Below are positions 743 to 40,557 of a stretch of 43,883 nucleotides of DNA, piece after piece. A program made the translations under genes and the position numbers. The notes under the pieces were generated by a model that saw only the letters and a list, made by a program, of their open reading frames with translations, searched no databases and had not been told where the DNA came from. Positions within the stretch are counted from its first letter, which is position 1, and each line of letters starts with the position of its first letter. The stretch lies in the NCBI GenBank assembly GCA_964394125.1, contig CAYMVN010000001.1:1-43883 (forward strand), read 5' to 3'. The DNA is from an uncultured Pseudomonadales bacterium. GTDB taxonomy: Bacteria; Patescibacteriota; Microgenomatia; UBA1400; PJMF01.

Positions 743-745
743 CGC

Positions 746-1720: not shown

Positions 1721-1759
1721 GAGTCGTACTACACTGAGTCTTGTAGTTACGTTATCTAC

Positions 1760-3349: not shown

Positions 3350-3357
3350 GGATAGAC

Positions 3358-4470: not shown

Positions 4471-6383
4471 TGAAACGCTTTGCACTCTACTTACTTGGCT
4501 GTTTAGTGGTACTCGCAGCACACCTTCCTGGGTTCATTATTCGAGCTGAAGATACTGGTATCTTACCTGGTGAAACCTATACTCAGCCAAAAACAAGAAC
4601 CACACAGGTAACAGCGGGTGTTCATGATAATGAGCCGCCCAGCACGCCGCTACTCATTGCTCCGGCTGATACTGCTATTCTTGCTACGAATACACCGACT
4701 TTTGTCTGGCAAGCTGCGACTGACAATATTGCGCTCAGTCACTATAGCCTCGTTCTCGATGGCACAGTGCTGTACTCGAGTATCCCACTCTCAGATACAA
4801 CAAATAGCCAGTTTACCCTCACCTACTCGAGCACAACGCATGAGTATAGCCTTGTTCCAAAAGAGGCACTTACTGAAGGTGAACACTCGTGGAGTATTAT
4901 CGCCTTCGATGTCTACGATAACCAGACAAGCTCTGTAACCTGGAAGTTTACTGTTGATACAGTTGCTCCCGTCTTTACCATTTCCACCGTCGATACACTC
5001 AAGGTCACTATCACAACGCAAGATCTCAGCACCATTCCTGAGACAGCACTGGCAGTCACCGTTGCGCAGCCGCTACTTTCAGGAACTGGAGAAGCTGGCA
5101 GCACAGTTCACCTCACGGTGCGCACGGCAAATGCTCCCGACCAAGTTTTTACCTTCACAATTGCTGCGAATGGGACTTGGGAACAAAAAATTGATACAAT
5201 TCCTAGAGATCAATTGATTCATCTTGATTTTATTATTACAGATAGCGCTGGAAACATCAGTGCGCTCGAAGATGTCCCGCTTATCCTCAAGAGTGTACAA
5301 ATTGTTATTCCGCTGCCTCCAGAGATACCGATACTTCCTCCAGAAGTAAGCATCCCGGTTATTAGTGCAGTAGAAATTAAAGAGAAGATCGTCTCAAGCA
5401 GCATTCTCTATGCGCCGCCAACTATTCAACAACTGGCCACCACCATTGGTCTAGTGCGCACTATCCCAGGCACACAAAAAATTGACTGGACGTTCCTCGC
5501 CTATATGAGCCTATGTACCCTTGGGCTCCACCTGGTGCTCAAGGTGTGTATCCTGATGCCACGATATACAGAGCTTGGCTGGTTTGGATTTTTGGATATC
5601 CTCAGGGTACTAGGTCTAGCCTGGGATGCACGACCACAAGGTATCGTTATCGACTCAAAAACACAGGGAGCAGTGCCCTTCTGCAAAATTAGTATCTCAG
5701 GGCAGCAAAAAAATAAAACACCACTGCACAAAAGCATCGTTACAAATAAACAAGGAGTCTTCTTTAAGACAGAGCTCCCTGAGGGAGAGTATGTCTATAC
5801 GGTTGTCGAAGAAGGCTTCGTCTTCCCCACTCTAACGCAACACCCACTCCACCTTGACTCAAACCAGTACTACCAAGGCAGCACCTGTACCGTGAGCGAT
5901 GATGCGCGACTCCCCGGGATAACTATTCCTGTTGATTCTTCTAGCAAGCCACGCACACCTTCACTTGCTCGGCGGATTCTGCAGAAACCGCTCCTGAACA
6001 CATCAGGAGTGGCTGTGAACTTACTTCTTGTGCTTGTAGCACCCTCACTGCTGAACGCTGCGGCTCTGAGCTTCTACTGTCTGCTCTACCTCACTGTGCT
6101 CGCACGGAGCCGGAAAAAGAAGAAACAGTACACCTTCAGTGATACACACATGTTACAGAAAGAGAACTCGGTAGTGTACCTGTACTCCCCTCAGAAAGAG
6201 CTCCTCGCTGTGCAGCAGACTTCAAAAGATGGCAGCTGTTTCTTTGAGCGACACGACACCTACACCATTGAGTACGTGGACACCACACACACCCTGCAAG
6301 AAGACCAAAGCGTAACGACAACAAGTAGTGAAGCTGAAGTGCTCCGCACCGAGCCTGCTCCCCACACCGTGAACTTCGCCTAG
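4470..6383 (+). CDS. Polytopic surface protein with N-terminal Ig-like domains and a carboxypeptidase-regulatory-like beta-sandwich
   Basis: The start overlaps the upstream stop (TAATG), suggesting translational coupling. It has a signal peptide (LLGCLVVLAAHLPGFIIRA). Ig-like repeats follow (EPPSTPLLIAPADTAILATNTPTFVWQAATDN..YSLVLDG; LSGTGEAGSTVHLTV). After two or three hydrophobic helices comes GIVIDSKTQGAVPFCKISISG...TNKQGVFFKTELPEGEYVYTV, a CarboxypepD_reg-type pattern, then further TM helices near the C-terminus. Confidence 0.6.
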   Translation: MKRFALYLLGCLVVLAAHLPGFIIRAEDTGILPGETYTQPKTRTTQVTAGVHDNEPPSTPLLIAPADTAILATNTPTFVWQAATDNIALSHYSLVLDGTVLYSSIPLSDTTNSQFTLTYSSTTHEYSLVPKEALTEGEHSWSIIAFDVYDNQTSSVTWKFTVDTVAPVFTISTVDTLKVTITTQDLSTIPETALAVTVAQPLLSGTGEAGSTVHLTVRTANAPDQVFTFTIAANGTWEQKIDTIPRDQLIHLDFIITDSAGNISALEDVPLILKSVQIVIPLPPEIPILPPEVSIPVISAVEIKEKIVSSSILYAPPTIQQLATTIGLVRTIPGTQKIDWTFLAYMSLCTLGLHLVLKVCILMPRYTELGWFGFLDILRVLGLAWDARPQGIVIDSKTQGAVPFCKISISGQQKNKTPLHKSIVTNKQGVFFKTELPEGEYVYTVVEEGFVFPTLTQHPLHLDSNQYYQGSTCTVSDDARLPGITIPVDSSSKPRTPSLARRILQKPLLNTSGVAVNLLLVLVAPSLLNAAALSFYCLLYLTVLARSRKKKKQYTFSDTHMLQKENSVVYLYSPQKELLAVQQTSKDGSCFFERHDTYTIEYVDTTHTLQEDQSVTTTSSEAEVLRTEPAPHTVNFA

Positions 6384-7505: not shown

Positions 7506-7647
7506 ACTTGATGTGACGCTCCGAATACTATACGAATGCATGTATATTACTGCAAGTACTGCGAAGTTATTACCTAGTTGCAAGCCTCTCATGTTTTGCG
7601 GGTATCTAAAGATACTCACACGAATAGAAAGTTTTTACACCAAATGT

Positions 7648-7664
7648 TTACAACTTTTGTAAAA
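7648..7664. promoter_or_regulatory. Perfect 7-bp inverted repeat TTTACAA-CTT-TTGTAAA, a candidate operator
   Basis: Read directly from the sequence. It lies in the spacer between the PaaX-like gene (minus) and the giant gene (plus). Three copies of TACTCAC follow, at 7716, 7764 and 7784. Confidence 0.3.
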
Positions 7665-7934
7665 TTATTACTTTTCCAGAGGAAAAATAACATAACTTGC
7701 GATAATTCTAATTTTTACTCACTATACGCGAGATAACTACACATTTCAACACACACTTCTGCTTACTCACATACTAGTAGAAATACTCACTTTTTTCTTT
7801 TGAAACAAAAACAGAGACTCCTTTTGATACTCTTTTATATTCATGAAAGGCGTGAATAAAAATTCTTTTGTTGCAGTCTCACCAGAGGTGAGCAAAGATC
7901 GCCCAACGGCGTCTTTTTGACCAGTTCTGACTTC

Positions 7935-7964
7935 TTGACTTGGCCTTGAGAAAAATCATACACT
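7935..7964 (+). promoter_or_regulatory. Candidate sigma70-type promoter for the giant gene (TTGACT-18-TACACT)
   Basis: TTGACT at 7935..7940 and TACACT at 7959..7964. The same ATACACTG -10 context recurs upstream of the pilin operon. A 6-bp hairpin GTCTAA/TTAGAC (approx. 7987..8010) lies in the predicted leader. An alternative extended -10, TGCAATAAT, is at 8021..8029. Confidence 0.25.
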
Positions 7965-8040
7965 GATGGCTGTACAAGAAAAAATAGTCTAACGAATCTG
8001 GATTAGACACAAAAAATACTTTGCAATAATTGAGAAACCC

Positions 8041-11000
8041 ATGACTGCCCAAGAAGTGTATCTCACAAGCGTAAACAAGCTTTTTTCAACATTTTTGTTG
8101 TCTCTTGATCTGACCGCTGAAGAGAAGAAACATGCTGAAGCACTATTTGTACAGCTACTTTCTCGTCTCGCTGCGAACGCTTCCACTGCATCGGTCGCAG
8201 AGTTCCTGAATGGGCAAAAGGGAGCAGCTCGAGAGATCTCAGCGGCATACGCTAGTGTGCAACAGTTTGTCGGCAGCGTCCCGCTCTCCCAGAGTAAAAT
8301 TCTACTCCATGAATATGTATTAGCACTCACTAGCGGAGACTGCTCAAATGCCACCATAAGGAATTATCGCAGTGATATCAACCAATTTTTACATTTCACC
8401 AATGAAGACCAGCTGGCAAAGACACTAACAAAACAAAAAGTCCTCGAGTTCATCCGTGCACAGAAGTCAGCTCAGCTCTCGGCGGCCACCGTCAAGAGAA
8501 AGTTAGTCAGCTTAGCACAGTTTGGGCTGTGGCTTGAATCCATCGGCGCGCTGCCGCTGGGTAGCTGCAGCTGGCTCGTAGAGCTCAGCCATACAGCACA
8601 TGACACAGTCACAGAGCCTGCCAAGCAGCCTGTCGAAGAGAAGCTTCCAGTACATAAGAAGCGACTCCGCTTTCCGCTTGCTAGTCTTGCCCCAGCACTC
8701 TTTGCTCAAAAACACGAACGAAAAACAAACTCAGGTCAAGAGTACTCTGAGCAGATAAAAAGAAATGTACGGTTACTACAAAGTACCTTACAAAAAAGAT
8801 CCAGCTCATTTTTTTCTCGATACGCCAATCTGGCGATGATACTGCTCTTCCTACTGTCATTTTCCTACTTTGGATACAAACAGTTATTCATCACGCCTGA
8901 CAAACCATTAGCATTCCCCTCGACACTAACTCGCCCAAATCGAACACTTTCTTTCCAGGGAAGATTAACTGATACAGCACAAAATCCTATCACTGCAGCG
9001 ACAAACTTTAGATTCAAATTGTTTGATTCTGGCCCAAGTACCGGAAGTGGTACTCAGTTGTGGGATTCTGGTGTGTGTAGCGTTACTCCAGATCAAGATG
9101 GTATCTTTTCTACCGGCTTAGGCTCAGACTGTGGCTCTGAGATTGCCTCATCAGTTTTCAGTGAGAATGCCAATGTCTGGCTTGAAGTAACGGTCGCTTC
9201 TGAGACACTCTCTCCTCGGCAAAGTATCAAGAGTGTTGCCTACGCGCTCAACTCTGAAACACTGCAGGGCTTCCCACCAGCTGATCCGGCAACAGCAAAC
9301 ACAGTACTCGTTATGAACAGTAGTGGCGAAGTTGTGCTGGGAAGTGCGACACCTAAAATTAAGGCTTCGAGTACTTCTCTTACTCTAGAAGGCACAACGC
9401 TCACCATGCAAGCTACCAGTGGCTCAAACGGGAATGTCGTTCTTGACCCTGATGGAACTGGTATTGTTATCGCCAAAGACTACATCGCTGCACCAGGAGC
9501 AACGCTCTCTGCAACCTATGCTGGTGGTACAGCACTCGTCACTAAAGGCGGACCCACTGGCACAGCAGACATTCAACAGTGGCAGAATAGCGCAGGAACT
9601 GCTCTCAGTGTAGTGAATGCTTCGGGTAATTTTGGTATTGGCACTTCAAGTCCTGGAATGAAACTCGATGTAGTGGGAGGCACAGCGAGAGTTGTATCTA
9701 GTGGCACTCCACTGGCTACTAGTTATGATCTCTCAATTCAAAACCCGGCGAGTAGTCAAACATGGTTAGAAATCTTAAATAATGGCGGAACAAATAAGGG
9801 TGCTTTCTTTGGTATGTGGAACGACTCATTCCAGCTGTGGAACTATCAAGCTGGTGATATCTCTTTCTATACAAATACGTCTGCATCGAATGGAACTGAA
9901 CGATTACGAATCGAGAATAACGGTAATATTGCGGTTGGCACAACAGGCACTGCCAACTTCTTACTTGATGTCAACGGAACTGTCGGCCCACACGTTGATA
10001 GTAGCTACAATCTGGGATCTTTAACCTATGCATGGGCTAATATATATGGCGATGCGTTGTACCAGAATGGCTATCAAGTCTGTGACAGTAGTGGCAACTG
10101 CCCGAGCGCTGGATACTGGAGACAGTTAAATGGCGCACTCTCCCCAATGAATGACACCGTTGATCTGCTCATCGGAGCCAGTGCTACAACTTCCGCGAAG
10201 TTTGCCTTCATGAACGTAAACTCTGGCACACCAACTGCAAGTATCTCAGGAAACTTAGCAGTTGCAGTACCAACAGGCGCAAATCCAGCAACTACCTATA
10301 CTGCACTCAACGGTGGCAGTATTAATTTCCAAACATCTGTCGGTGGTCCAAGTGGCGCAAGCTCTGGACTCTTCATTAAGAATGATGGCAATATCGGAAT
10401 TGGCTCTGTCAGTCCTGCAGCAAAGCTTGATGTCGCTGGTACGATCAGAAACAACTCATATACTGCTTTTGGTGCTGATACCGGTTCTGCACAGTGGGGA
10501 CTAAACTCTGCACGAGGTATTAATGTTATACATACTGCTGCCCCCGCTGCAGGGACTGGCTCAGTTGGTATCCGTTCTGAAATCACCCGAACTTCAGATG
10601 GCACCGGCAGCACAATCAATGCTGCCTACTATGGACGCCCCCTCATCAATGCTTCTGGCTTAACCGTTGATGAGAATGCTACATACTATGCAGCCAATGG
10701 CTCTATAACTGCTGGTACTATGACAAATCAATATGGTTTGTATGTAGCGGGGCTTTCTGGTGCAACAAATAACTATGCTGTGTACACCGCAAGTACTACC
10801 AAGTCATATTTTGGTGGCAATGTTGGTATCGGTACAACAAATCCTGCTAACTTTAAATTGCAACTCACGGGTGATATTGGGCCCACCACTACTGCTACCT
10901 ATAGCTTGGGCTCAGCTACCTATAAGTGGAATAATATCTACGGGACAACTATCTACCAGGGTGCGAACCAAGTTTGTGACACGAGTGGAAACTGTGGAAG

Positions 11001-14000
11001 CGGCAGCATCTGGGCCAACACTGCTAATGTATACCATCCGTATAATGCGAATGCCACAGTTGCTGACCTCGTTATTGGTGGCAACTCCACTGCCAGTGCT
11101 GACTTTAGGGTGACGGGCTTAGGCAACGGTTCAACTGACCTCGCTGGTTACACCTATGGTAGACGCTTCCTTGATATTGACTCGACTAACTATTATGTAG
11201 AGCCAGGCAACACAACAACTGCAGGTGCGTTTGCCAGTAATGTCGGAATCGGCACCACCACCCCCGACTCGCTCCTACATGCCTACTCAAATACGACTGG
11301 TGCATCAACAGTACACGGCAAGTTTGAAAACATAAGTGCGACAGGAAGAGCTCAAGCAGTTGTCTCCAGTGGCACCTACCCAAATAACTTCTTTGCACTT
11401 ATGACACACGGAGCAAGTTTTGCTTCAGATAACTACTTGAGTGATTCCACAAATGATGCTGGTCTTGGCGTCTTACTTGGGCAAGGCTCACAGATGACGA
11501 AGTTTGCTGTTGGAACATACAACAGCACTCCGCTCTCTTTCTTCACTGGCAATACTGAACGCATGTACATTTCTAGCACCGGTAATGTTGGGATCGGGAC
11601 AACAAATCCATCAAGCTTCAAGCTAGAGTTAGCTGGTAACGTCGGCCCCACCACAACTGCAACGTATGACCTCGGCTCAGCTTCACTCAAGTGGAACAAC
11701 ATCTACGGTACAACTATATATCAGGGAGCAAACCAAGTCTGTGATCTTGGGGGAAACTGTGGCCTCGGACTCTGGGAGAACAACAGCAATGTCTTCAACC
11801 CTAAAAATCAGTATGCGTCTATTGTTGACCTAGTAGTTGGCGGCAACTCCACCGCCAGTGCCGACTTCAGGGTGACTGGTCTTGGCAATGGCTCGACAGA
11901 CCTCGCTGGTTACACCTACGGCAGACGCTTCACTGATATTGATGCAACAGGCTATTACGTTGAACCAGGAAACGTCACAACCGCAGGGTTATTTGCTGGC
12001 AACATTGGTGTCGGCACTACAGGCCCTCTTGCAACTGTTGATATCAGAGGGAATGTATACCTGAATGACGGGTCTGCTGGGGCCCCTGCATTCAGCTTCA
12101 ACGCAGATACGAATACAGGGTTCTACCGTCAAGCTAGCGACTTAATTTCATTTGTTGCCAATGGACAGAACGCACTTAATGTTGATGGCTCCACTGGTAC
12201 AGGAAGACTGATGGTTGGAAATGGATATCCTGTCTCACGCTTACAACTGAACGATGATACTGGCACTTCTGCTTCAGGACTTACCCTGGGAAGTACAAGC
12301 CCTATTTCTCTCTACCGCTCAGCTGCAAGTATGTTGGCAATCACCGGTGGTAATGTAGGAATTGGAGAAACAAACCCTGCAAACTTCAAGTTACAACTAC
12401 TGGGAGACATTGGACCGACCACAACTGCTACCTATAACTTGGGCTCGGCTACCTATAAGTGGAACAACATCTACGGTACAACTATCTACCAGGGTGCGAA
12501 CCAAGTCTGTGACATGAGTAACAACTGTGGAACAACGCTTTGGGAGAACAACAGTAATGTCATTAATCCACGAAATCAGTATGCCGCTGTTACTGATCTC
12601 ATCATCGGCGGCAACTCCACTGCCAGTGCTGACTTTAGAGTAACAGGTCTTGGCAATGGTTCAACCGACCTCGCTGGTTACACCTACGGCAGACGCTTCC
12701 TTGATATTGACTCAACTGGCTATTATGTTGAACCGGGAAACATATTCACAGCAGGCTTATTTGCAGGTAATGTTGGAGTTGGTACCACAAACGCAGATAC
12801 AACATTGAAGGTATACAATAGTTCGGCACCAACATTCCAAGTCGCTACTTCTACTACAGCAAATGTCGGATTGTACTACGAAGGCAGTGGAAATGATTTA
12901 TATCTTGGTGGAGACTCTTCTCAAGATGGTAACTTGTACATAAAGAATCTGTCTGGAACCACAACCATTGCGCTGAATGCAGGGAGTGCCACTCATAGTT
13001 ATATCAATAGTGGAGCTAACGTAGGTATTGGAACAACCAACCCCGCTAACTTTAAGCTGCAAGTTGCAGGAGGTGTCGGCCCAACGGTAACCGCAACCTA
13101 TGATCTCGGCTCAGCTACCTATAAGTGGAACAACATCTATGGCACAACTATCTACCAAGGTGCGAACCAAGTCTGTGATACGAGTAATAACTGTGGAACG
13201 CCGCTGTGGGAAAACAATAGCAATGCCTTCAATCCTCGGAATGAGTATGCCTCAATTGCTGATATCGTTGTCGGAGGGAACTCTACCGCCAGTGCTGACT
13301 TTAGAGTAACAGGTCTTGGCAATGGCTCAACCAATCTTGCAGGCTACACCTACGGCAGACGCTTCCTTGACATTGACTCAACTGGCTATTATGTTGAACC
13401 AGGAAATACTTCGATAGCTGGTGCGTTTGCTGGAAACGTTGGTATCGGTACAACAAACCCCGCTGGTTTACTGGAAGTTAAGAGCCCAAATGCCAACTAC
13501 ACCTTTACCACAAGCTCAACGAGTGGCTACACTACCAACTTCCTCATGGATGACACAGGGCTAAGAATTGGTCACAACAGTAGCTCTCGTGATATTGAGT
13601 TCCAGACATCTTCTACCACACGAATGACAATTCTTGGTGGTGGCAATGTTGGTATTGGTACTACCAGCCCGAATAATTTGTTTGAAGTTGCTGCATCTGA
13701 TACCGGTAATACATTCCTCAGTAGCGCGAGTGTTAGAGTTACAAATACGAACTCTGCTGCTTTTGGCAGAATGCAGAGTTTAACCTTTGGTACTGCTGGA
13801 AATTCTAGTTATATTGGTGCTGGTATCGCTGGCATCTACGACAACTGGAATGTTACCAATGGAGCAGGTCATACCCTCGCTTTTTTCACTAAAGACTCAT
13901 CTATTGAGGCTACTCCTTCAGAAAAAATGAGAATTAATAAATCTGGAAACCTAGGCATTGGAACCACTTCACCTGCGGCAAAAATTGAGGTGTATGGAGC

Positions 14001-17000
14001 TACTGAAGGAATTAGAATTACTGGTTCAGGAACAACTGGCGATAGTTCTACTGCTTATCTCACGTTTTACGACTCAAACGGCTCAACAAGAAGAGGTTTT
14101 GTTGGTGATGGGGCAACTAGTAATGATGATATTCACCTCAAAGCAGATACAGGAGATATTCACATTGGAGATTCTAGTAGTGGCACAGTTTTGAACTTAA
14201 GTGGTGGAAATGTCAGTATTGGCACCACTTCAAGTACATTAGGCAAATTAACAGTCATGGGAACAAAAGTACTTGATGGAGCACAGGTTTTTACACAATC
14301 TGTTGCAGATGATACTGCCTACAGTTCCTCTCCTATTGCTGGTATTAGATTTATAACAAAATATAATACTGCTGGTGGACTTGCTGGATTGGGTGGTATA
14401 AATGTGGGTAAAGAAAATACAACAGATGGCGACTACGCATCATACTTAACACTTACCACTCGTACAAATGGATCCTCAATTGCTGAGCGACTGCGCATTG
14501 ATAGTTCTGGAAACGTCAGTATTGGAACAACCTCATCAGCAGCTAAGTTATATACCTACGATGCTGCCGATAATACCATCATTACCGCCGGATACTCAGG
14601 TGCCCGAACGAATCCTCTCTTTTTGGCTACAACAACAACTTCATCAGTTGCTCCAACTGGCTTTGATTTTTATAGTTGGTATAGTGCTTGGGGACCAGTC
14701 TCTGGAGGAATCCGTGGCTCAAGCGGCTCTGGTACTTGGGAATCACAAATTTATGGCACACAGAAACTTGTTCTTAATGCAGGAGGATATAGCTCTAGTA
14801 CTGCTGATATTATGATTGATTTGGCAGGAAATGTGGGGATTGGTACAACATCACCTGGCTCAAAGCTTGACGTAGCTGGAGATATCCGACTCTCAAGTGG
14901 TAGCTCAATAAACAGTGCCGGCTCAGATGTCAGAATTCACACCAATAAAACAGATGATACGGCATACGAGTACTTCAGTTTCTACTCTGGTGCAAGCAGA
15001 CAAGGTATCATACTGTATGACGGTGCATGGACCGGCTGTTCAAACGTAACAGATGAGTTCTGTTTGAAGGCTGAAAATGGCAACCATCTAGCATTTTATA
15101 GTGAGAGTGGTAAAGATATTCGCTTAATACCAGGAGGAAACGTGGGTATTGGGACGACTTCAACTGTTGCAAAACTCACTGTGTATAGTAGTCTTACGGG
15201 TTCTGGAGCAAGCGAGACAATTTCTTCCAATACGTCACTTAGTACTGCCGCAACTGGAGATTATATGGGGTATTGGCTCAACATGAACGCGATTACCGCT
15301 TCATCGGGAACACAGGCACCAACAATGTATGGGCAATACAATACTATTTCAAGAAGCCTTACAGATAATTCAAGTGGCCAAAGTACTGTTTATGGTACAT
15401 ACAGCTCAGCCTCTCAGCTTGCTCTTACAAATAACGTTGGTTCAAAAGTAACGTATGGTGGATACTTTACAGCTACTGGGAACTCACTAGGAAATTCTTT
15501 TGCTATTGGAGTAGCGGCAGACGCGACTGGTACAGATACCTCATATGGTGTGTATACCGGTACTGTTACTGGCACTGATCCCTACTCAATATATACTTCT
15601 GGTACGACAAAAAGCTACTTTGGTGGAAACGTCGGTATTGGTGTTACCGGTCCAGCACAAAAGCTTGATGTGGCTGGTACAATCCAAACTGATCTTGTAG
15701 CATCAACCAATAGCTATGCGCTCTGTCACGAGAACAACGTCACTCTAACTAATCAAGACATTAAAGATTGTAGTGGTACACCAGCTGCTGACTACATGGA
15801 GTTCTATTCTGTGGACACCAACGTTACACCTGGAGACTTACTTGCCCCATCTACCACCTACATCACCACGAATGATGGAGATCAAATTACCAAGTTAACG
15901 AAAACAAACCAGGCCTATCAACGGACAACAATCGGCATAGCATCTGTCCCTGAAAATGCAGGAGACTTTAATAGTATCGGACGCAATATTAAAGATGAGG
16001 ATAACCCATTCCCTGTTGCGCTTAATGGTCGTGTTCTCGTTAAGTTTAGTTCTATAAATGGAACTATTCAACCTGGTGACTATGTAACTTCATCTGATAT
16101 TCCTGGTGTTGCAATGAAAGCAACCAATGCTGGCTGGGTAATCGGTAAAGCGATTGCTTCCTATGCGAACTCAGATACAAGTGCCGTTGGCACCGTCATG
16201 GTTTTCGTCAATTCTGGTTGGTACGACCCTTCCATCCAGTTCAACTCTGAGGGTGAATTGGTGATTAACTCTGCTGGACAAGATACATACACCGTCAGCC
16301 CAGTTGCTGGTTCTCCTCTACAAAATATTGTTGCAGGTGCTACGGCGGTGTTTGGTAAGATTCGCGCTGGCAGCGCCACAATCACCAGCATCACTACCGA
16401 GCAGCTCAATATTTCTGGTCAGAGTATTCAAGAGCTCATTGCCAGCATGATTGATGAGCGAATTGCCGGCTCTGCACTAGTTGCTTCACAGTCTGCGCAA
16501 CTCGAGAGTGTTGTTGCTACTTCAGCTTCAATTTCAGGTACTCTCTCCGCATCAAGAACATCATTGGGTGAACTCCTGGCAGAGACTGCGACAATCTCTG
16601 GCACGTTAACCACGACTGAACTGAACGTAACTGGTAGCTCTCGGCTAGCACAGATCACTGCTCAACAAGCAGTCCTTGAAAGACTCAAGGCAAACACGGC
16701 GGAGCTGTTTGATGCAACAATTTCTGGCACACTCTATGCCGAGAATATTGCGAATCTTGATGCAAAAATTGCTACAGCCATCCAAGAGCCAACCTTTATT
16801 GATGCTCTAACAGGCAACATCCCTTCTCCACCACCTGCTGCGAATCCGTTAACCGTGTACGATACCGTTGCGACAGCAGGCTACACCCCAGTAAACCCAG
16901 AGTTTTTTGCTGAAAATGAAGGTATTTCTCTAGTAAATGGTGATATTCTCCTCGACTCAGCTGCTGTGTTTGTACGCAAGTACTTACAAGTTAACGGACT

Positions 17001-17724
17001 CGCCTACATTACTGAAACACTCGGCGTAGGGACAAAGATAGTTGTGGGTAACACAACAAGCCTTTCTGATGGAGCACTCGCCTTCACCCCAATTCCTGGT
17101 CAAGAGAATGTTCTCAAGATTCAACCGTCTGGCAGTGGAAGTATCGAACTGTTGGCTGGTGTCATGACTATTCAAAATGGCCAAGTGACGATAACTGGAG
17201 ACATCACTGCAACGGGCAAAGTAAAAGCCTCAACGTTATTGACGAACCTCATTCAACCTGCCGACTTTGGAAATCCATTCCAGGTGCAAGTAGCAGGTAT
17301 CTCTACCGGTTCAGGAGAGCTTAAAAAATCACGATTCGAGATTATTAACGAGCTCGGTACCCCAGTGGCAACTATTTCAGCTGAAGGTAAAGCTAACTTT
17401 GCTGGTGGAATCGGCGTTGGTAGCCAAGAGCTGAGTGTCCCAACCGTCTCAAGTGGCAGCGCAGTTACCGTCACCGCCGAAAAATCTTCTGGAAAGTCAA
17501 AAATTCAGGCGGGAACACACGAAATTACCATCGAGTCTGAGCATATTTCAAGCGACTCGCTCATCTACGTTACCCCACTGGGCAGCACCCAGAATCAAGT
17601 GTTGTACGTAAAGTCACAAACAGCCGAAGATCCTGCTACTTCAGAACACGAAGGCAAGTTTGTTGTTGGTTTTGATGCTGCCGTTTCCAGTGATGTGTCG
17701 TTCAATTGGTGGATTGTTAACTAG
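8041..17724 (+). CDS. Giant (3227 aa) single-pass surface fibre protein: XerD-type core-binding (SAM-like) domain, TM helix, tail-fibre-like repeat ectodomain
   Basis: A single uninterrupted ORF; all overlapping ORFs are short shadows. Residues ~88-172 (nt 8302..8556) read YVLALTSGDCSNATIRNYRSDINQFLHF...LTKQKVLEFIRAQKSAQLSAATVKRKLVSLAQFGLWLESIGAL. This fits the tyrosine-recombinase N-terminal core-binding pattern, but no catalytic domain follows. The TM helix is YANLAMILLFLLSFSYFGYKQLF (8821..8889). The ectodomain starts LSFQGRLTD...NPIT....LWDSG....V..DGIFS..LG........VWLEVTV..E.LSPRQ.I.SV.YAL. It then carries 18 GN(V/I/L)(G/S)IGT...KL.V.G motifs, and ends in a coiled region and beta-rich terminus (...FNWWIVN). 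Confidence 0.9.
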   Translation: MTAQEVYLTSVNKLFSTFLLSLDLTAEEKKHAEALFVQLLSRLAANASTASVAEFLNGQKGAAREISAAYASVQQFVGSVPLSQSKILLHEYVLALTSGDCSNATIRNYRSDINQFLHFTNEDQLAKTLTKQKVLEFIRAQKSAQLSAATVKRKLVSLAQFGLWLESIGALPLGSCSWLVELSHTAHDTVTEPAKQPVEEKLPVHKKRLRFPLASLAPALFAQKHERKTNSGQEYSEQIKRNVRLLQSTLQKRSSSFFSRYANLAMILLFLLSFSYFGYKQLFITPDKPLAFPSTLTRPNRTLSFQGRLTDTAQNPITAATNFRFKLFDSGPSTGSGTQLWDSGVCSVTPDQDGIFSTGLGSDCGSEIASSVFSENANVWLEVTVASETLSPRQSIKSVAYALNSETLQGFPPADPATANTVLVMNSSGEVVLGSATPKIKASSTSLTLEGTTLTMQATSGSNGNVVLDPDGTGIVIAKDYIAAPGATLSATYAGGTALVTKGGPTGTADIQQWQNSAGTALSVVNASGNFGIGTSSPGMKLDVVGGTARVVSSGTPLATSYDLSIQNPASSQTWLEILNNGGTNKGAFFGMWNDSFQLWNYQAGDISFYTNTSASNGTERLRIENNGNIAVGTTGTANFLLDVNGTVGPHVDSSYNLGSLTYAWANIYGDALYQNGYQVCDSSGNCPSAGYWRQLNGALSPMNDTVDLLIGASATTSAKFAFMNVNSGTPTASISGNLAVAVPTGANPATTYTALNGGSINFQTSVGGPSGASSGLFIKNDGNIGIGSVSPAAKLDVAGTIRNNSYTAFGADTGSAQWGLNSARGINVIHTAAPAAGTGSVGIRSEITRTSDGTGSTINAAYYGRPLINASGLTVDENATYYAANGSITAGTMTNQYGLYVAGLSGATNNYAVYTASTTKSYFGGNVGIGTTNPANFKLQLTGDIGPTTTATYSLGSATYKWNNIYGTTIYQGANQVCDTSGNCGSGSIWANTANVYHPYNANATVADLVIGGNSTASADFRVTGLGNGSTDLAGYTYGRRFLDIDSTNYYVEPGNTTTAGAFASNVGIGTTTPDSLLHAYSNTTGASTVHGKFENISATGRAQAVVSSGTYPNNFFALMTHGASFASDNYLSDSTNDAGLGVLLGQGSQMTKFAVGTYNSTPLSFFTGNTERMYISSTGNVGIGTTNPSSFKLELAGNVGPTTTATYDLGSASLKWNNIYGTTIYQGANQVCDLGGNCGLGLWENNSNVFNPKNQYASIVDLVVGGNSTASADFRVTGLGNGSTDLAGYTYGRRFTDIDATGYYVEPGNVTTAGLFAGNIGVGTTGPLATVDIRGNVYLNDGSAGAPAFSFNADTNTGFYRQASDLISFVANGQNALNVDGSTGTGRLMVGNGYPVSRLQLNDDTGTSASGLTLGSTSPISLYRSAASMLAITGGNVGIGETNPANFKLQLLGDIGPTTTATYNLGSATYKWNNIYGTTIYQGANQVCDMSNNCGTTLWENNSNVINPRNQYAAVTDLIIGGNSTASADFRVTGLGNGSTDLAGYTYGRRFLDIDSTGYYVEPGNIFTAGLFAGNVGVGTTNADTTLKVYNSSAPTFQVATSTTANVGLYYEGSGNDLYLGGDSSQDGNLYIKNLSGTTTIALNAGSATHSYINSGANVGIGTTNPANFKLQVAGGVGPTVTATYDLGSATYKWNNIYGTTIYQGANQVCDTSNNCGTPLWENNSNAFNPRNEYASIADIVVGGNSTASADFRVTGLGNGSTNLAGYTYGRRFLDIDSTGYYVEPGNTSIAGAFAGNVGIGTTNPAGLLEVKSPNANYTFTTSSTSGYTTNFLMDDTGLRIGHNSSSRDIEFQTSSTTRMTILGGGNVGIGTTSPNNLFEVAASDTGNTFLSSASVRVTNTNSAAFGRMQSLTFGTAGNSSYIGAGIAGIYDNWNVTNGAGHTLAFFTKDSSIEATPSEKMRINKSGNLGIGTTSPAAKIEVYGATEGIRITGSGTTGDSSTAYLTFYDSNGSTRRGFVGDGATSNDDIHLKADTGDIHIGDSSSGTVLNLSGGNVSIGTTSSTLGKLTVMGTKVLDGAQVFTQSVADDTAYSSSPIAGIRFITKYNTAGGLAGLGGINVGKENTTDGDYASYLTLTTRTNGSSIAERLRIDSSGNVSIGTTSSAAKLYTYDAADNTIITAGYSGARTNPLFLATTTTSSVAPTGFDFYSWYSAWGPVSGGIRGSSGSGTWESQIYGTQKLVLNAGGYSSSTADIMIDLAGNVGIGTTSPGSKLDVAGDIRLSSGSSINSAGSDVRIHTNKTDDTAYEYFSFYSGASRQGIILYDGAWTGCSNVTDEFCLKAENGNHLAFYSESGKDIRLIPGGNVGIGTTSTVAKLTVYSSLTGSGASETISSNTSLSTAATGDYMGYWLNMNAITASSGTQAPTMYGQYNTISRSLTDNSSGQSTVYGTYSSASQLALTNNVGSKVTYGGYFTATGNSLGNSFAIGVAADATGTDTSYGVYTGTVTGTDPYSIYTSGTTKSYFGGNVGIGVTGPAQKLDVAGTIQTDLVASTNSYALCHENNVTLTNQDIKDCSGTPAADYMEFYSVDTNVTPGDLLAPSTTYITTNDGDQITKLTKTNQAYQRTTIGIASVPENAGDFNSIGRNIKDEDNPFPVALNGRVLVKFSSINGTIQPGDYVTSSDIPGVAMKATNAGWVIGKAIASYANSDTSAVGTVMVFVNSGWYDPSIQFNSEGELVINSAGQDTYTVSPVAGSPLQNIVAGATAVFGKIRAGSATITSITTEQLNISGQSIQELIASMIDERIAGSALVASQSAQLESVVATSASISGTLSASRTSLGELLAETATISGTLTTTELNVTGSSRLAQITAQQAVLERLKANTAELFDATISGTLYAENIANLDAKIATAIQEPTFIDALTGNIPSPPPAANPLTVYDTVATAGYTPVNPEFFAENEGISLVNGDILLDSAAVFVRKYLQVNGLAYITETLGVGTKIVVGNTTSLSDGALAFTPIPGQENVLKIQPSGSGSIELLAGVMTIQNGQVTITGDITATGKVKASTLLTNLIQPADFGNPFQVQVAGISTGSGELKKSRFEIINELGTPVATISAEGKANFAGGIGVGSQELSVPTVSSGSAVTVTAEKSSGKSKIQAGTHEITIESEHISSDSLIYVTPLGSTQNQVLYVKSQTAEDPATSEHEGKFVVGFDAAVSSDVSFNWWIVN
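10816..13455 (+). repeat. Four in-frame ~441-444-bp cassettes inside the giant gene (10816..11259, 11581..12021, 12349..12789, 13015..13455)
   Basis: Each cassette encodes GNVGIGTTNPANFKLQLTGDIGPTTTATY.LGSATYKWNNIYGTTIYQGANQVCD.S.NCG...NP.N.YA...D...GGNSTASADFRVTGLGNGSTDLAGYTYGRRFLDIDSTGYYVEPGN...AG.FAGNVG.GTT. Start-to-start spacings are 765, 768 and 666 bp, with non-homologous spacers. Identical DNA runs of 20-29 nt are shared, e.g. acaactatctaccagggtgcgaaccaagt and ggcaactccactgccagtgctgacttta. A diverged fifth copy lies at ~9922..10260. Confidence 0.9.
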
Positions 17725-18831: not shown

Positions 18832-19266
18832 TTATTTAGAACAGACGCAGAAGTATCCGCTTGCGTATGTGCCTGTTGCACCACAGCGCTCTGCTGAGTT
18901 TTTATCCTCATCACCTGCATCTGAATTAAGCTTCGCACAGGCGTAGAAAGTATCTGCTGTACCAGCATAGTCACAGCTAGTCTCTGATAAGAGCTTGCCA
19001 TCGACATAATTTTTTAAGTATGCCGTAGTATCCAGTGAGGTACAGGTGGTAAGACTCGCTCCCACTGGGTAACTCTGATTATCGTTGTAATACATCCGCA
19101 ATGCTGTTTTCAGCTGATTCATATTACTTTTTAATTTTGCATCGTACCCTCTATCACGGACACCCGCCATGTTAGCCAGTAAGAACGCCGCCAAAATTGC
19201 AATGACAGAGATAACAACCAAGAGTTCAATTAACGTAAAGCCATTGAGTTGCGTTATTTTTTTCAT
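18832..19266 (-). CDS. Type IV pilin-like / pseudopilin protein
   Basis: The N-terminus MKKITQLNGFTLIELLVVISVIAILAAF carries the prepilin peptidase motif (G|FTLIE) and a hydrophobic helix. It then reads RDRGYDAKLKSNMNQLKTALRMYYNDNQSYP (GspG/PilA-like), followed by a Cys-containing C-terminal head. Confidence 0.85.
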   Translation of the reverse strand: MKKITQLNGFTLIELLVVISVIAILAAFLLANMAGVRDRGYDAKLKSNMNQLKTALRMYYNDNQSYPVGASLTTCTSLDTTAYLKNYVDGKLLSETSCDYAGTADTFYACAKLNSDAGDEDKNSAERCGATGTYASGYFCVCSK

Positions 19267-19272
19267 AAAATA

Positions 19273-19830
19273 TTATTCGGCTTGTACTGTAAGTAATGAT
19301 GTATTTGAGCTATGCACTCCATAATTACAGCCCTTATATGGTGGAGAACCTCCTGTACAAGATATGGTGCCATACTTACCCAGGTCACCAGTGTCAGTGA
19401 CAGCTACTGCACTGTCACTTGTGTTCTCAAGCCGAGCATAAAGCTGATACCCCTTACCATCTGACTGATAAAAGTATAGATGCCCTTTAGGATCTGTTGG
19501 TAATTGGGACATGTAAGTATTAGTCTCGTCAATTACAAACTGCTCACCCCACTCACAAGACTCAGTAGCTTTGCCCTGTGCATCGATAGTTCCACAACCT
19601 TTAATGGTCTTATTATCTCCCACCAAAGGATACTTACCATAATCGTTATAATACAACTCCAATGCTCTCGAAATGCTCTCCAAGTCATTCTTCCGCTTGG
19701 CGTCCCGGGCTTTTATCTGTATTGAGGTATAGCTTCCCAAGCCCACAGCCACAAGGATCGCAATGATCGACATCGCTACCAAGAGTTCGATCAGTGTAAA
19801 GCCGGTTCTTCTCCTCTGTTTTATTTCCAT
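19273..19830 (-). CDS. Type IV pilin-like / pseudopilin protein
   Basis: MEIKQRRRTGFTLIELLVAMSIIAILVAVGL, then ARDAKRKNDLESISRALELYYNDYGKYP, with four Cys residues in the head domain. Confidence 0.85.
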   Translation of the reverse strand: MEIKQRRRTGFTLIELLVAMSIIAILVAVGLGSYTSIQIKARDAKRKNDLESISRALELYYNDYGKYPLVGDNKTIKGCGTIDAQGKATESCEWGEQFVIDETNTYMSQLPTDPKGHLYFYQSDGKGYQLYARLENTSDSAVAVTDTGDLGKYGTISCTGGSPPYKGCNYGVHSSNTSLLTVQAE

Positions 19831-19862
19831 ACGTCCACTATACCATTCTACCGTAGTGTCTG

Positions 19863-20366
19863 CTAATCACCATTTGCGTCAAGTTGTATCCCAACGGCAA
19901 CGCCGTAGGTATACGTAACAACCCCACTCTTGTAGCAACCATTTTCTTCACTGCACCCGAGTTTTTCGATGTCAGGGTCATGTTTGTTATCAAGCACTGC
20001 ATACAAGCGGTACGTTTTGCAAACACCCGAAGCACACTGCGGAAGGTAAAGATAGGGCAGCTTTGTCCGTACATCACAGGGCACTTCTTTCAGACTGTTA
20101 CTGAGTACAGTATTCTGCCCACAGACACTAACAGTACCATTGGTAGGGTGTAACTCAGAAGGATACGTCCCTTTATCATTGTAGTACTCTTCAAGTGCAG
20201 TCGCAATTTTGTGGAGGTCAGCCTTCCGCCGCCCGTCTCTGCCTTTGGCCAAGGAAGGAATGATATTGACTGTTAAGGCAGTAATGATAACGGCAATGAT
20301 CGCGATGACAGCGAGCACTTCAATAAGGGTAAATCCACTACGAGTACTGTTTGAGTGAGGTTTCAT
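19863..20366 (-). CDS. Type IV pilin-like / pseudopilin protein (first gene of the pilin triplet)
   Basis: MKPHSNSTRSGFTLIEVLAVIAIIAVIITAL, then GRDGRRKADLHKIATALEEYYNDKGTYP, followed by a Cys-rich head. Confidence 0.85.
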   Translation of the reverse strand: MKPHSNSTRSGFTLIEVLAVIAIIAVIITALTVNIIPSLAKGRDGRRKADLHKIATALEEYYNDKGTYPSELHPTNGTVSVCGQNTVLSNSLKEVPCDVRTKLPYLYLPQCASGVCKTYRLYAVLDNKHDPDIEKLGCSEENGCYKSGVVTYTYGVAVGIQLDANGD

Positions 20367-27308: not shown

Positions 27309-27315
27309 GTTCTGT

Positions 27316-27344
27316 ATTATATCAATATGTATCAAAATATACAA
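27316..27344 (-). promoter_or_regulatory. Promoter of the sortase-rho operon (TTGTAT-17-TGaTATAAT); predicts a leaderless mRNA
   Basis: The minus-strand reading is TTGTAT(27344..27339)-17 nt-TATAAT(27321..27316), with TG at the extended -10 position. It is followed by ACAGAAC (7 nt) and then ATG at 27308. No SD is possible. Confidence 0.45.
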
Positions 27345-27391
27345 CAATATAGGATACTATTAAGAATGTGTGCAGAAAAAAATAAAAAGAA

Positions 27392-40554: not shown

Positions 40555-40557
40555 GCT

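Follow-up and report, generated by a model that had tools for sequence, protein, structure and literature searches.

A family of giant Microgenomatia proteins joining a tyrosine-recombinase core-binding fold to a transmembrane helix and a tail-fibre-like ectodomain

The stretch of DNA analysed here (the window, 43,883 nt) holds an intact gene for a 3227-aa protein that belongs to a conserved and so far undescribed family of Microgenomatia. The defining architecture of this family is a tyrosine-recombinase core-binding (CB) domain followed by a transmembrane (TM) helix and a fibre. From N- to C-terminus, the protein consists of a helical subdomain, a CB fold with no catalytic domain, a linker, a basic helix, the TM helix, a membrane-proximal base, a stalk and a C-terminal domain (Table 1). 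No paper describing this architecture was found in the literature. In the explanation that we prefer, and hold with about even confidence, the CB domain of this conserved family most likely serves as a membrane-tethered DNA-binding module with a logic like that of ToxR and CadC.

Table 1. Positions of the fibre gene, its protein segments and its neighbours in the window
Feature	Position (nt)	Strand	Basis
Upstream conserved five-gene cluster A–E, taken to be a distant Pam-type (CPR donor-strand) pilus operon	53..6383	+	
Gene A, PamT/Pam-pilin-like	53..742	+	NCBIfam matches below cutoff
Gene B, hydrophobic segments at both ends, interpreted as signal peptide and C-terminal TM helix	746..1720	+	
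Gene C, hydrophobic leader at N-terminus	1760..3349	+	
Gene D, hydrophobic segments at both ends, interpreted as signal peptide and C-terminal TM helix	3358..4470	+	
Gene E, Big_13 membrane protein	4470..6383	+	
Divergent PaaX-like transcription regulator, 250 aa	6753..7505	-	Synteny, PaaX_M, homologue-supported start M39
Control region, 535 bp, AT-rich (35% GC)	7506..8040	.	Conserved blocks, motif counts, promoter scan
CB-TM-fibre gene, complete, 3227 aa	8041..17724	+	ATG start; ORF list and translation
N-terminal four-helix subdomain, aa 1–80, no known family	8041..8280	+	Family alignment and AF2
Tyrosine-recombinase core-binding (SAM-like) domain, aa 84–172	8290..8556	+	Pfam, AF2 and Foldseek, alignment
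Variable, low-confidence cytoplasmic linker, aa 173–230	8557..8730	+	pLDDT <55 at about aa 190–230; gappy, unconserved columns
Basic juxtamembrane helix, aa 231–260, running into the TM helix	8731..8820	+	One helix in AF2, aa 231–284
Sole TM helix, aa 261–283	8821..8889	+	KD 15-mer 2.15; family alignment
Membrane-proximal ectodomain base, aa 291–420 (conservation to about aa 545)	8911..9300	+	Identity across relatives; dense invariant columns
Variable stalk, tail-fibre-type units	9301..15720	+	Motif count, self-BLAST, PHROG
Two semi-conserved distal modules: aa 2561–2760; Ser/Thr/Ala-rich 'ATISGTL' repeat region, aa 2761–2960	15721..16920	+	
Conserved C-terminal domain, aa 2961–3227, ends F-N-W-W-I-V-N, no known family	16921..17721	+	
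Three type IV pilin genes beyond the end of the fibre gene	18832..20366	-	Pfam N_methyl, T2SSG

An earlier reading of this DNA, made from the sequence only, had delimited the 3227-aa ORF, and the ORF list and translation returned it exactly so. The same reading had called the arrangement unusual. It is no one-off: the combination of N-domain, TM helix and fibre is present in CPR genomes of more than 100 species, where it defines the family. Exhaustive HMMER searches yielded 130 cluster representatives, mostly of 2000–7700 aa with the match near the N-terminus, 88 of which scored E<=1e-10 (P0001 at E=1.2e-71), and 121 candidate stretches were found in species-representative genomes. The family occurs mainly in Woesebacteria/Pacebacteria (Microgenomatia, Patescibacteria), with ORF sizes in related loci ranging from 800 to >3600 aa. 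The 3227-aa protein shows the family CB motifs together with the conserved TM helix, base, F-N-W-W-I-V-N C-terminal domain and divergent PaaX-like gene. Family members are named 'phage integrase N-terminal SAM-like domain-containing protein' or 'hypothetical protein' by NCBI, and fragments are named 'site-specific integrase, partial'.

That last label, the internal repeats of the gene and its tail-fibre profile matches could together suggest that the ORF is an artefact or foreign, being either an assembly chimera that joins an integrase 5' end to a repeat-rich gene for a fibre, or a tail-fibre gene from a prophage. We give this reading almost no credence, and several observations contradict it. 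An assembly chimera is excluded because full-length homologues are collinear with the protein in many independent assemblies from different projects (e.g. P0004, 3066 aa, Ca. Woesebacteria; P0001, 5298 aa) and because the DNA repeats have diverged; being only 63–80% identical, these repeats are too diverged for collapse. The surroundings are chromosomal by synteny, with Obg, M23 peptidase, Rho and RadA-like genes, and no phage structural genes lie near the fibre gene; the genes that do, of pilus, regulator and housekeeping types, are conserved from species to species. Finally, a search of 50,697 phage records gave no match to the N-domain and only weak tail-fibre matches to the ectodomain.

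The N-terminal subdomain opens with a start motif that is conserved in the family alignment, M-x-A-Q-x-x-Y-x-x-S-x-L-x-x-F-S-T-F, and its four helices span aa 3–21, 26–45, 51–60 and 64–79 in the AlphaFold (AF2) model. These first 80 residues are missing from an 'M[PL]AKIPKP' subfamily. For the segment that follows, the sequence-only reading had proposed a recombinase core-binding domain (nt 8302–8556, aa 88–172), an assignment now borne out by Pfam and by structure. Phage_int_SAM_1 (PF02899) matches aa 100–165 with E=2.3e-9 and 37.8 bits, above the curated cutoff of 22.3, and Phage_int_SAM_4 matches aa 89–161; the former model is also matched by 14/14 full-length relatives (best 1.6e-17). The AF2 model of the N-terminal region is confident and well folded (pLDDT 82.6) and superposes on integrase CB domains. 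Foldseek placed 3nrw on top among PDB entries (TM-score 0.79, rmsd 1.9 Å, prob 1.0), followed by the N-domains of lambda Int, XerA, IntI and Cre, and its top matches in BFVD were integrase CB domains, again with prob 1.0.

The CB domain is kept in 25/25 aligned relatives, which share 23–50% identity, with 12 invariant residues (T105, N108, Y109, S111, D112, I113, Q115, K131, F137, R153, K154 and W164) and 11 near-invariant ones. The family motifs are C-S-x-x-T-I-R-N-Y-R-S-D-I-x-Q-F and S-x-I-x-R-K-L-x-S-x-x-Q-F-x-x-W, and among the invariant and near-invariant positions are basic and polar ones in the two helices aligned to Pfam model positions 13–79 (T-I-R-N-Y-R-S-D-I and R-K-L-x-S-x-x-Q-F). 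The fold is that of the tyrosine recombinases (XerC/XerD, XerA, lambda Int, IntI, Cre; PF02899/PF13495), with whose CB domains the family shares T-x-x-x-Y-x-x-D-(L/I)-x-x-F and S-x-x-x-R-x-L-S-x-x-x-x-F. Residues N108, S111, Q115, K131, K154 and W164 are family-own invariants by comparison with recombinases, as is the near-invariant Cys101; when set against two recombinase alignments, Q115 and K131 were matched but N108, S111 and W164 were not.

The absence of a catalytic domain after the CB segment, also part of the sequence-only reading, was upheld. Neither the 3227-aa protein nor any of the 14 full-length relatives matched PF00589, the best NCBIfam matches (XerC/XerD models) align over about positions 11–85 only, and only ~90 residues separate the CB domain from the TM helix. 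The protein is therefore not a recombinase and cannot recombine DNA. It also differs from recombinases in the TM helix and ~2940-aa ectodomain that follow the CB domain and in the extra four-helix subdomain that precedes it. The missing catalytic domain might indicate that the N-terminal region is left over from an integrase gene that fused with one for a surface protein, and that it now only forms an inert cytoplasmic stub preceding a signal-anchor; the faster evolution of the N-domain relative to the ectodomain base and the one subfamily without the first 80 residues would fit such an origin. We consider this improbable, because decay or loss of a stub would be expected in such reduced genomes, whereas the CB domain retains its 12 invariants in all 25 aligned relatives, is recognized by Pfam in every full-length relative scanned and gives a confident, well-folded model. 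The cytoplasmic CB domain thus appears to be a selected, functional module. The linker behind it is predicted to be disordered.

The segment at aa 261–283 is the only strongly hydrophobic one in the whole protein, in agreement with the single TM helix proposed earlier, and its sequence is conserved across the family (consensus L-P-Y-L-N-L-A-x-x-x-L-F-F-x-G-L-x-x-F-G-Y-Q-Q-F-F). Across 75 relatives, the 20 aa flanking the helix contain a mean of 4.5 K+R on the N-side versus 1.0 on the C-side, with higher values on the N-side in 67 relatives and lower values in 3 (Wilcoxon p=6e-13). This positive-inside bias puts the N-terminus in the cytoplasm rather than outside the cell. We also counted as support the 16 Cys of the ectodomain and the paired Cys loops of the stalk repeats. 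The favoured topology is accordingly N-in/C-out, with a CB domain predicted to be cytoplasmic and a TM helix that would act as a Sec signal-anchor. Net charge per 100 aa is +4.5 for the N-domain versus -4.9 for the ectodomain.

The ectodomain of ~2940 aa was described in the sequence-only reading as rich in G, T, S and N with tail-fibre motifs, and its G/T/S/A/N-rich composition, 14 GN[VI]G[IV]G units in the stalk and PHROG tail-fibre matches (phrog_9942 at 2.6e-20, phrog_18345 at 5e-19) agree with this description. Conservation peaks in the base: 80 relatives match it at 75–92% identity, against only 30–50% for their N-domains, and this extremely conserved segment spans ~130–250 aa. The stalk contains four ~255-aa repeats (aa 926–1867, nt 10816–13641; repeat families D1/D2), each with a C-D-x-x-x-N-C loop, which self-BLAST showed to be 55–78% identical as protein and 63–80% as DNA. 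Separate segments of the stalk have different nearest relatives and it is therefore mosaic; its weak matches among the phage records were to Pelagibacter-phage tail fibres. Segments homologous to the distal modules occur in 28 relatives (aa 2561–2760) and 46 relatives (aa 2761–2960). The C-terminal domain is matched by 56 relatives at 54–75% identity, sits at the extreme C-terminus of all 8 relatives listed among these, and had no significant Pfam match and only weak PDB matches; a profile built from the final 470 residues (aa 2758–3227) weakly matched the repeat region of the lambda tip attachment protein J (E=0.033). Neither base nor C-terminal domain was related to any phage record searched. 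By family resemblance, the ectodomain would be exported through Sec and fold into a probably trimeric fibre projecting from the cell.

Resemblance to phage tail fibres and tailspikes with a C-terminal intramolecular chaperone (Peptidase_S74; endosialidase type) lies in the common PHROG repeat units, in the mosaic stalk and in the Peptidase_S74, End_tail_spike and YadA_head domains that Pfam detects in some relatives (Peptidase_S74 in 3/14). Unlike those fibres, the protein is encoded by a chromosomal gene, has a cytoplasmic domain and TM anchor, belongs to no virion module and lacks a Peptidase_S74 domain detectable by Pfam. Compared by description, the giant genes of Omnitrophota (West-Roberts et al., bioRxiv 2023), an example from among other ultrasmall or predatory bacteria, also encode huge, repeat-rich, TM-bearing surface proteins of uncultivated lineages; that report does not mention integrase/SAM-like domains or Microgenomatia.

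The fibre gene has a putative Pam-type pilus operon on one side and type IV pilin genes on the other, a context absent from the earlier note. The five-gene cluster is syntenic in 36–46 of 80 loci, including this one. Gene A and 5/5 orthologues match NCBIfam CPR_Pam_pilin_C below its cutoff of 55 (E 1e-6 to 1e-4, 22–29 bits), and two of this set match PamT, likewise below its cutoff of 240 (best 1.1e-7, 31.5 bits). Genes B, C and D had no profile matches; the termini of B and D resemble those of PamC and PamD as described by Troman et al. (bioRxiv 2026, doi 10.64898/2026.03.03.709456). One sentence of that paper refers to a 'tail fibre-like protein' co-localized with pam operons, and its main text makes no mention of an integrase or recombinase domain. 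By description, the neighbourhood, with a fibre gene directly beside a Pam-type operon in Microgenomatia, is probably the same as ours. NCBIfam Pam models did not match the N-terminal 290 aa of the fibre protein, whose link to the pilus is one of gene neighbourhood. On the other side, the same three pilin genes follow in about eight loci whose fibre gene ends inside the locus (L006, L037, L057, L060, L062, L063, L069 and partly L049). The intervening ORF (18000–18815), previously thought to encode a possibly secreted accessory protein, begins with an acidic stretch unlike a signal peptide; it has no Pfam/NCBIfam match and lacks a homologue in all 80 related loci.

The PaaX-like gene accompanies the fibre gene almost obligately, being present and divergent at 73/80 loci; of the seven loci without it, three contain ordinary integrase-sized ORFs (251–317 aa) and three have <650 nt upstream. 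The earlier identification of this neighbour as PaaX-like is supported by PaaX_M matches in 13/14 regulator orthologues (best 5.4e-7), and the regulator profile weakly matched the PaaX structure 8a39, the uncharacterized protein 3kfw and a winged-helix protein. Since homologues support a regulator start at M39, the spacer measures 535 bp and not the 420 bp first reported. Spacers in 13 other loci are 476–618 bp long and hold no conserved ORF, and the control region had no Rfam match. It contains four TACTCAC heptamers, all on the + strand (7613, 7716, 7764, 7784), an inverted repeat (7710–7722/7852–7864), a predicted sigma-70 promoter that is invariant across loci according to promoter scan and alignment (-35 at 7935–7940, -10 at 7959–7964) and a palindromic 5'-UTR element, GTCTAA-N10-TTAGAC, at 7987–8008.

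Three motifs are enriched across the spacers of 74 loci: ACCCGAA in 47 (1.5 expected), TTCACAT in 50 (6.8 expected) and GTCTAAT in 47 (5.1 expected). These motifs are strand-specific and near-absent from coding sequence and upstream of the pam operon, and may represent candidate operators. The reverse complement of one conserved block consensus, TGTGTATTATGTGAAGT, matches 14/17 positions of the central region and XerD arm of E. coli dif, with P about 0.002 for random 29-mers from spacers; 13/17 matches numbered 25 observed versus about 14/74 in shuffled spacers. In this window, the block is degraded, with TACTCAC instead of ACTTCACAT. The resemblance to a dif half-site becomes marginal once multiple blocks and references are corrected for, and we treat it as a weak lead.

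Under our preferred explanation, the fibre ectodomain would work beside the two pilus systems in contacting hosts or surfaces. The cytoplasmic CB domain, which most likely still binds DNA, could act on the conserved motifs upstream of its own gene, in concert with the PaaX-like regulator or in opposition to it, or alternatively could hold DNA at the contact site. The nearest analogy is with ToxR, TcpP and CadC, in which, as here, a DNA-binding-type domain at the cytoplasmic N-terminus is joined through one TM helix to an extracytoplasmic domain; the location of the fibre gene beside a control region with conserved operator-like motifs adds to the likeness. Their cytoplasmic domain is, however, an OmpR-type winged helix rather than a recombinase CB fold, and their extracytoplasmic domain a small sensor rather than a 2940-aa fibre. 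The protein is not a member of the ToxR/CadC family and would, at most, work analogously. Several points count against DNA binding by the CB domain. It is more parsimonious to assign the conserved spacer motifs to the winged-helix regulator encoded next to the fibre gene, isolated recombinase CB domains are known only as weak DNA binders without the catalytic domain, and the N-domain is less conserved (30–50%) than the base (75–92%).

The main rival to DNA binding, possible but in our estimation somewhat unlikely, leaves architecture and topology unchanged and supposes that the CB fold lost DNA binding and was co-opted as a cytoplasmic protein-docking module. RodZ, whose cytoplasmic helix-turn-helix binds MreB, is a precedent for a DNA-binding-type fold that binds protein; it too places this fold at the cytoplasmic N-terminus of a bitopic protein, ahead of a single TM helix and a periplasmic domain, but it differs in fold, size, partners and context and is not homologous. 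Candidate roles include sequestration of the PaaX-like regulator at the membrane (feedback in the style of Mlc-PtsG or anti-sigma factors), recruitment of export or assembly factors to handle the huge ectodomain, and fibre oligomerization. The presence of the PaaX-like gene beside the fibre gene at 73/80 loci would suit such roles, conservation of the extreme N-terminal motif and TM sequence suggests protein contacts, the family-own invariants N108, S111, Q115, K131 and W164 point the same way, and the winged-helix regulator by itself could account for the spacer motifs. Conversely, the conserved basic residues R107, R110, R153 and K154 in the two helices matched by Pfam and the strong positive net charge fit a DNA-binding surface, and we know of no precedent for a CB domain as a protein-binding module.

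A bolder version of the DNA-binding explanation, which we view as unlikely though worth stating, is a transmembrane coupling device. A trimeric, host-contacting fibre would carry CB ends that bind Xer-half-site-like operators or other DNA, and fibre engagement or tension would be relayed to gene expression, or to DNA positioning or uptake at the contact site, of the episymbiont. If true, this would be the first stand-alone, membrane-tethered DNA-binding use of a tyrosine-recombinase CB domain.

Patescibacteria account for a large fraction of bacterial diversity and presumably live attached to other cells; how they recognize hosts and sense contact is largely unknown. The family described here places a huge mosaic outer fibre beside two pilus systems and gives it an inner domain known till now only from DNA recombinases. 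If the CB domain does not bind DNA, the annotation of fragments named 'site-specific integrase' would still be corrected, and the 'tail fibre-like' neighbour of Pam operons in Microgenomatia would be recognized as membrane-anchored, with its own regulator and control region. If the CB domain does bind DNA, the family would represent a novel kind of regulator tethered to the membrane, or of nucleoid tether, and the domain, promoter region and partner regulator would provide a handle on contact sensing in genetically intractable organisms.

All features that the sequence-only reading had assigned to the fibre gene (the ORF, a SAM-like segment, a transmembrane (TM) helix and a fibre-type ectodomain) were found at the coordinates it had named. 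The SAM-like domain and the TM helix lie only about 90 residues apart, and the ectodomain of ~2940 aa, with a high content of G, T, S, A and N, carries 14 GN[VI]G[IV]G units and matches PHROG tail-fibre families (phrog_9942 at 2.6e-20). This arrangement, previously presented as unusual, is that of a family: searching 1.84 billion cluster representatives exhaustively with HMMER recovered 130 matches (88 at E<=1e-10), and 121 candidate stretches encoding a relative turned up when one genome was scanned for each GTDB species. Only exhaustive HMMER searching makes the family visible, word-indexed protein search being blind to it, with no match for aa 1-300 and short fragments alone for the base domain. 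An exact-sequence look-up of the 3227-aa protein in public assemblies returned no record.

The HMMER relatives are mostly proteins of 2000-7700 aa, matched at or near the N-terminus, and each has a single hydrophobic helix located 170-470 residues into the chain. Members are publicly named 'hypothetical protein [Ca. Woesebacteria]' or 'phage integrase N-terminal SAM-like domain-containing protein', and fragments 'site-specific integrase, partial'. Among the 80 related loci fetched, the fibre ORF was open at the locus end (up to >3600 aa) or closed at 800-3300 aa, three Chloroflexi-type loci having instead integrase-sized ORFs of 251-317 aa. Among the GTDB-scan candidates, the records with informative titles name Pacebacteria, Woesebacteria, Microgenomates or 'Patescibacteria group'. 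The CPR gene order of the locus is shared by many TPA records that bear the title 'uncultured Pseudomonadales' and look mislabelled; CPR-type loci also occurred under the titles Pseudomonadales, Limisphaerales, Methylococcaceae and Vitreimonas (L001, L002, L005, L034, L038, L064 and others), probably in error. A complete family member, of the short 'MLAKIPKP' subfamily, is encoded in CP011212.1 (L064), a record titled candidate division TM6.

The recombinase core-binding (CB) fold proposed for the N-terminus was borne out by both profile and structural comparisons. In Pfam, Phage_int_SAM_1 matched aa 100-165 of the fibre protein (E=2.3e-9, 37.8 bits against a curated cutoff of 22.3) and Phage_int_SAM_4 matched aa 89-161, with no catalytic integrase domain found; alignments to the NCBIfam XerC/XerD/XerA models were restricted to the first ~85 model positions. 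An AlphaFold model from the single sequence was unusable (pLDDT 49), and a rerun with an alignment of 26 family N-termini reached pLDDT 82.6. In the latter model, aa 3-79 form four helices and aa 84-167 a five-helix domain, after which come a short helix, a disordered linker (aa ~186-230) and a single long helix (aa 231-284) that runs into the membrane. The assignment as a CB domain, made on this predicted model, is solid because the sole high-probability Foldseek matches in the PDB were integrase N-terminal domains, led by 3nrw (TM-score on target 0.79, rmsd 1.9 A, probability 1.0), with lambda Int, XerA, IntI and Cre ranking next, and the viral library returned integrases and 'CB domain-containing' proteins. 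Queried by sequence alone, with the N-domain and with its profile, the PDB yielded only marginal recombinase matches (3nrw E=0.84, XerA E=0.44), and the first 80 residues had no known match.

Phage_int_SAM_1 was matched by all 14 full-length relatives scanned (best 1.6e-17) and PF00589 by none of them (0/14); three also carried Peptidase_S74, one End_tail_spike and one YadA_head. In the N-terminal alignment, 12 residues (T105, N108, Y109, S111, D112, I113, Q115, K131, F137, R153, K154 and W164) are invariant, the family begins with M-x-A-Q-x-x-Y-x-x-S-x-L-x-x-F-S-T-F (aa 1-18 here, M-T-A-Q..Y..S..L..F-S-T-F), and the TM sequence is strikingly conserved (L-P-Y-L-N-L-A-x-x-x-L-F-F-x-G-L-x-x-F-G-Y-Q-Q-F-F). 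The missing catalytic domain speaks for, and the invariant residues speak against, the idea that the CB region is an inert relic, which we consider highly improbable. A cysteine at aa 101 (nt 8341-8343) is near-invariant in the CB domain, within a 'C-S' preceding T-I-R-N-Y-R-S-D-I.

The N-terminus had been predicted to be cytoplasmic, and the charge distribution agrees. Across 75 relatives, K+R in the 20 residues flanking the TM helix averaged 4.5 on the N-side versus 1.0 on the C-side, the excess lying on the N-side in 67 and on the C-side in 3 (p=6e-13), and net charge per 100 aa was +4.5 for N-domains and -4.9 for ectodomains. The K+R bias, this charge split and paired cysteines in the stalk repeats support a predicted N-in/C-out orientation. 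An assembly chimera, against which the sequence-only reading had cautioned, is excluded for practical purposes because the internal DNA repeats of the gene have diverged (63-80% identity only) and P0004, a 3066-aa homologue from an independent Woesebacteria assembly, is collinear end to end. Phage genomes gave weak matches to the repeat unit and no match to the N-domain; that the gene is an artefact or a prophage is barely credible.

Conservation is unevenly distributed along the protein. The membrane-proximal ectodomain (aa 291-420) is its most conserved part (75-92% identical in 80 relatives), with conservation reaching about aa 545 in an alignment of this base, and the last 267 aa are 54-75% identical, the match (56 relatives) being located at the extreme C-terminus in every relative listed. 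N-domain identity to relatives is 30-50%, and the middle of the protein is variable and mosaic. The nearest relative differs by segment, aa 421-925 being 86% identical to P0004 versus 45% to P0001 (a 5298-aa homologue) and the N-domain being closest to P0001 (49%; P0004 37%), which suggests that fibre genes recombine with one another, like phage tail-fibre genes. The repeat region of the lambda tip attachment protein J was weakly matched by a profile of the last 470 aa; no Pfam or PDB family could be assigned to the C-terminal 470-770 aa.

Synteny around the fibre gene, examined by tblastn of the neighbouring proteins against the 80 loci, was strict and extended over genes A-E, F, the fibre gene and the downstream genes (see table), the order of A-E being kept in 36-46 loci. 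Gene A and 5/5 orthologues matched CPR_Pam_pilin_C (NCBIfam, E 1e-6 to 1e-4) and two of this set matched PamT (best 1.1e-7), in both cases below the curated cutoff. We read the termini of B and D as a signal peptide and a C-terminal TM helix, the description given for the PamC/PamD chaperones of the Pam (CPR donor-strand) pilus (Troman et al. 2026, bioRxiv, doi 10.64898/2026.03.03.709456). On the basis of the gene A matches and the PamC/PamD-like termini, A-E is probably a distant, divergent Pam-type pilus operon in Microgenomatia. According to the same preprint, 'a tail fibre-like protein' is consistently found together with pam operons; neither an integrase nor a recombinase domain is mentioned in its main text (Troman et al. 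2026).

Features of the fibre locus and its surroundings (nt positions unless marked aa)
Feature	Position	Strand	Remark
Gene A	53-742	+	Pam pilin/PamT-like, sub-threshold
Gene B	746-1720	+	hydrophobic N- and C-terminal segments
Gene C	1760-3349	+	in upstream cluster A-E
Gene D	3358-4470	+	hydrophobic N- and C-terminal segments
Gene E	4470-6383	+	in upstream cluster A-E
Gene F, corrected	6753-7505	-	250 aa, start set by orthologues
Spacer	7506-8040		535 bp, AT-rich, 35% GC, from corrected F start
Spacer block 2	~7706-7725		about 420 nt upstream of fibre gene in relatives (e.g. L060, L051, L054)
Inverted repeat	7710-7722 / 7852-7864		conserved, in spacer
Spacer block			T-T-T-T-C-C-A-C-A ... A-C-C-C-G-A-A
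Spacer block			T-T-T-T-T-A-C-T-T-C-A-C-A-T-A-A-T-A
Spacer block			T-T-G-A-T ... C-A-T-G-A-A-A-A-n-C-n-G-T-G-A-A-A
Sigma-70 promoter	7935-7964		invariant; T-T-G-A-C-n, 17-18 nt, T-A-n-A-C-T; promoter scan agrees
5'-UTR element			G-T-C-T-A-A-Y-n-A-A-T-C-T-G-G, from spacer alignment
Palindrome	7987-8008		GTCTAA-N10-TTAGAC, window form of 5'-UTR element
Fibre ORF	8041-17724	+	ATG start, 3227 codons
TM helix	8821-8889 (aa 261-283)	+	sole strongly hydrophobic segment of fibre protein
Four ~255-aa repeats	aa 926-1867		in fibre protein
ORF after fibre gene	18000-18815	+	
Three type IV pilin genes	18832-20366	-	downstream of fibre gene; two with faint ComP_DUS-like matches
Polytopic membrane protein	20483-22591	+	C-terminal TPR repeats; downstream of fibre gene
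Sortase gene	26583-27347	-	few kb downstream of fibre gene
VirD4/TraG-type coupling ATPase	27861-30011	+	TrwB_AAD_bind + TraG-D_C; few kb downstream
Camelysin/TasA-like cluster	39340-41825	+	Peptidase_M73, Peptidase_S24-like protein, two further small ORFs

The divergent regulator gene that had been placed ahead of the fibre gene was recovered as gene F in 73 of the 80 loci; of the seven loci lacking it, three are those with integrase-sized ORFs, and in another three the locus holds <650 nt of upstream sequence. PaaX_M was matched by 13 of 14 F orthologues (best 5.4e-7), and the F profile weakly matched the structures of PaaX (8a39), an uncharacterized protein (3kfw) and a winged-helix protein; on these profile matches, F is PaaX-like. 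Its orthologues set the start at M39 of the listed ORF (6753-7619, -), with the ATG at 7505, the listed start being 38 codons early.

The ORF after the fibre gene, previously suggested to encode a possibly secreted accessory protein, has an acidic N-terminus, no domain match and no homologue across the 80 loci; it could be restricted to this lineage or be no gene at all. The three type IV pilin genes are found again in about eight loci with a fibre gene that closes within the locus and the TPR membrane protein recurs downstream in six, with Obg and an M23/LysM peptidase next in the few loci extending so far. Further along lie a sortase gene and a coupling ATPase gene, the latter perhaps part of the type IV secretion system reported for Patescibacteria. 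The camelysin/TasA-like cluster may be another secreted-fibre operon, its Peptidase_S24-like protein possibly being a signal peptidase.

With the start of F corrected, the spacer that had been given as 420 bp lengthens to 535 bp; its AT-richness stands. Spacers in 13 other loci measure 476-618 bp, long for such compact genomes, and the region has no conserved ORF and no Rfam match. The spacers align in blocks although the flanking proteins are only ~30% identical, and particular heptamers are over-represented across 74 loci: ACCCGAA in 47 (1.5 expected), TTCACAT in 50 (6.8 expected) and GTCTAAT in 47 (5.1 expected). These heptamers are strand-specific and nearly absent from coding controls and 5' of the pam operon; a regulon shared with that operon was rejected, the specific heptamers occurring upstream of it in 0-3 of 35 loci. 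TACTCAC is a repeated unit of the window spacer, with four copies within 178 bp, all on the + strand, and 12 in the whole 43.9-kb window. An invertible (fim-like) promoter switch was also dropped, because the conserved inverted repeat does not enclose the promoter and the cluster has no full recombinase gene.

The reverse complement of the block 2 consensus, TGTGTATTATGTGAAGT, matches at 14/17 positions what we take to be the central region and XerD-binding arm of E. coli dif. The statistics are marginal (P about 0.002 for 14/17 among random 29-mers from spacers; 25 observed at 13/17 versus about 14/74 in shuffled spacers), and the motif is degraded in this window. This apparent resemblance to the XerD half of dif is a weak lead, of interest since the neighbouring gene codes for a Xer-like CB domain.

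Building on the established architecture, orientation, family-wide conservation, locus and conserved cis-elements of the fibre gene, we propose that the TM helix would act as a signal-anchor and that the ectodomain would form a fibre, probably trimeric, whose envelope-proximal base and distal domain are conserved and whose stalk diversifies. In surface or host contact, this fibre would work together with Pam-type and type IV pili. The conserved CB residues, basic ones included, sit in the two Pfam-matched helices, which together with the strong positive charge argues that the CB domain may retain nucleic-acid binding; we see an even chance that the fibre protein is a membrane-tethered DNA-binding protein, analogous to ToxR/CadC in logic, without homology. 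Its own control region would be the obvious candidate target. The main rival, which we judge rather unlikely, is RodZ-like co-option of the CB domain for protein binding, for example to sequester the PaaX-like regulator. Direct coupling of the fibre to DNA seems distinctly unlikely.

The fibre gene is not unseen, since automatic annotation in databases already picks up the domain and a neighbouring 'tail fibre-like' gene is mentioned in one preprint. In the portion of the literature consulted, we met no account in which a CB domain serves a membrane-anchored fibre as its cytoplasmic module, and the architecture, the family, the pairing with a regulator and the control region are undescribed. 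The fibre gene belongs with those for giant surface fibres or adhesins, the cytoplasmic module of its product being unprecedented.
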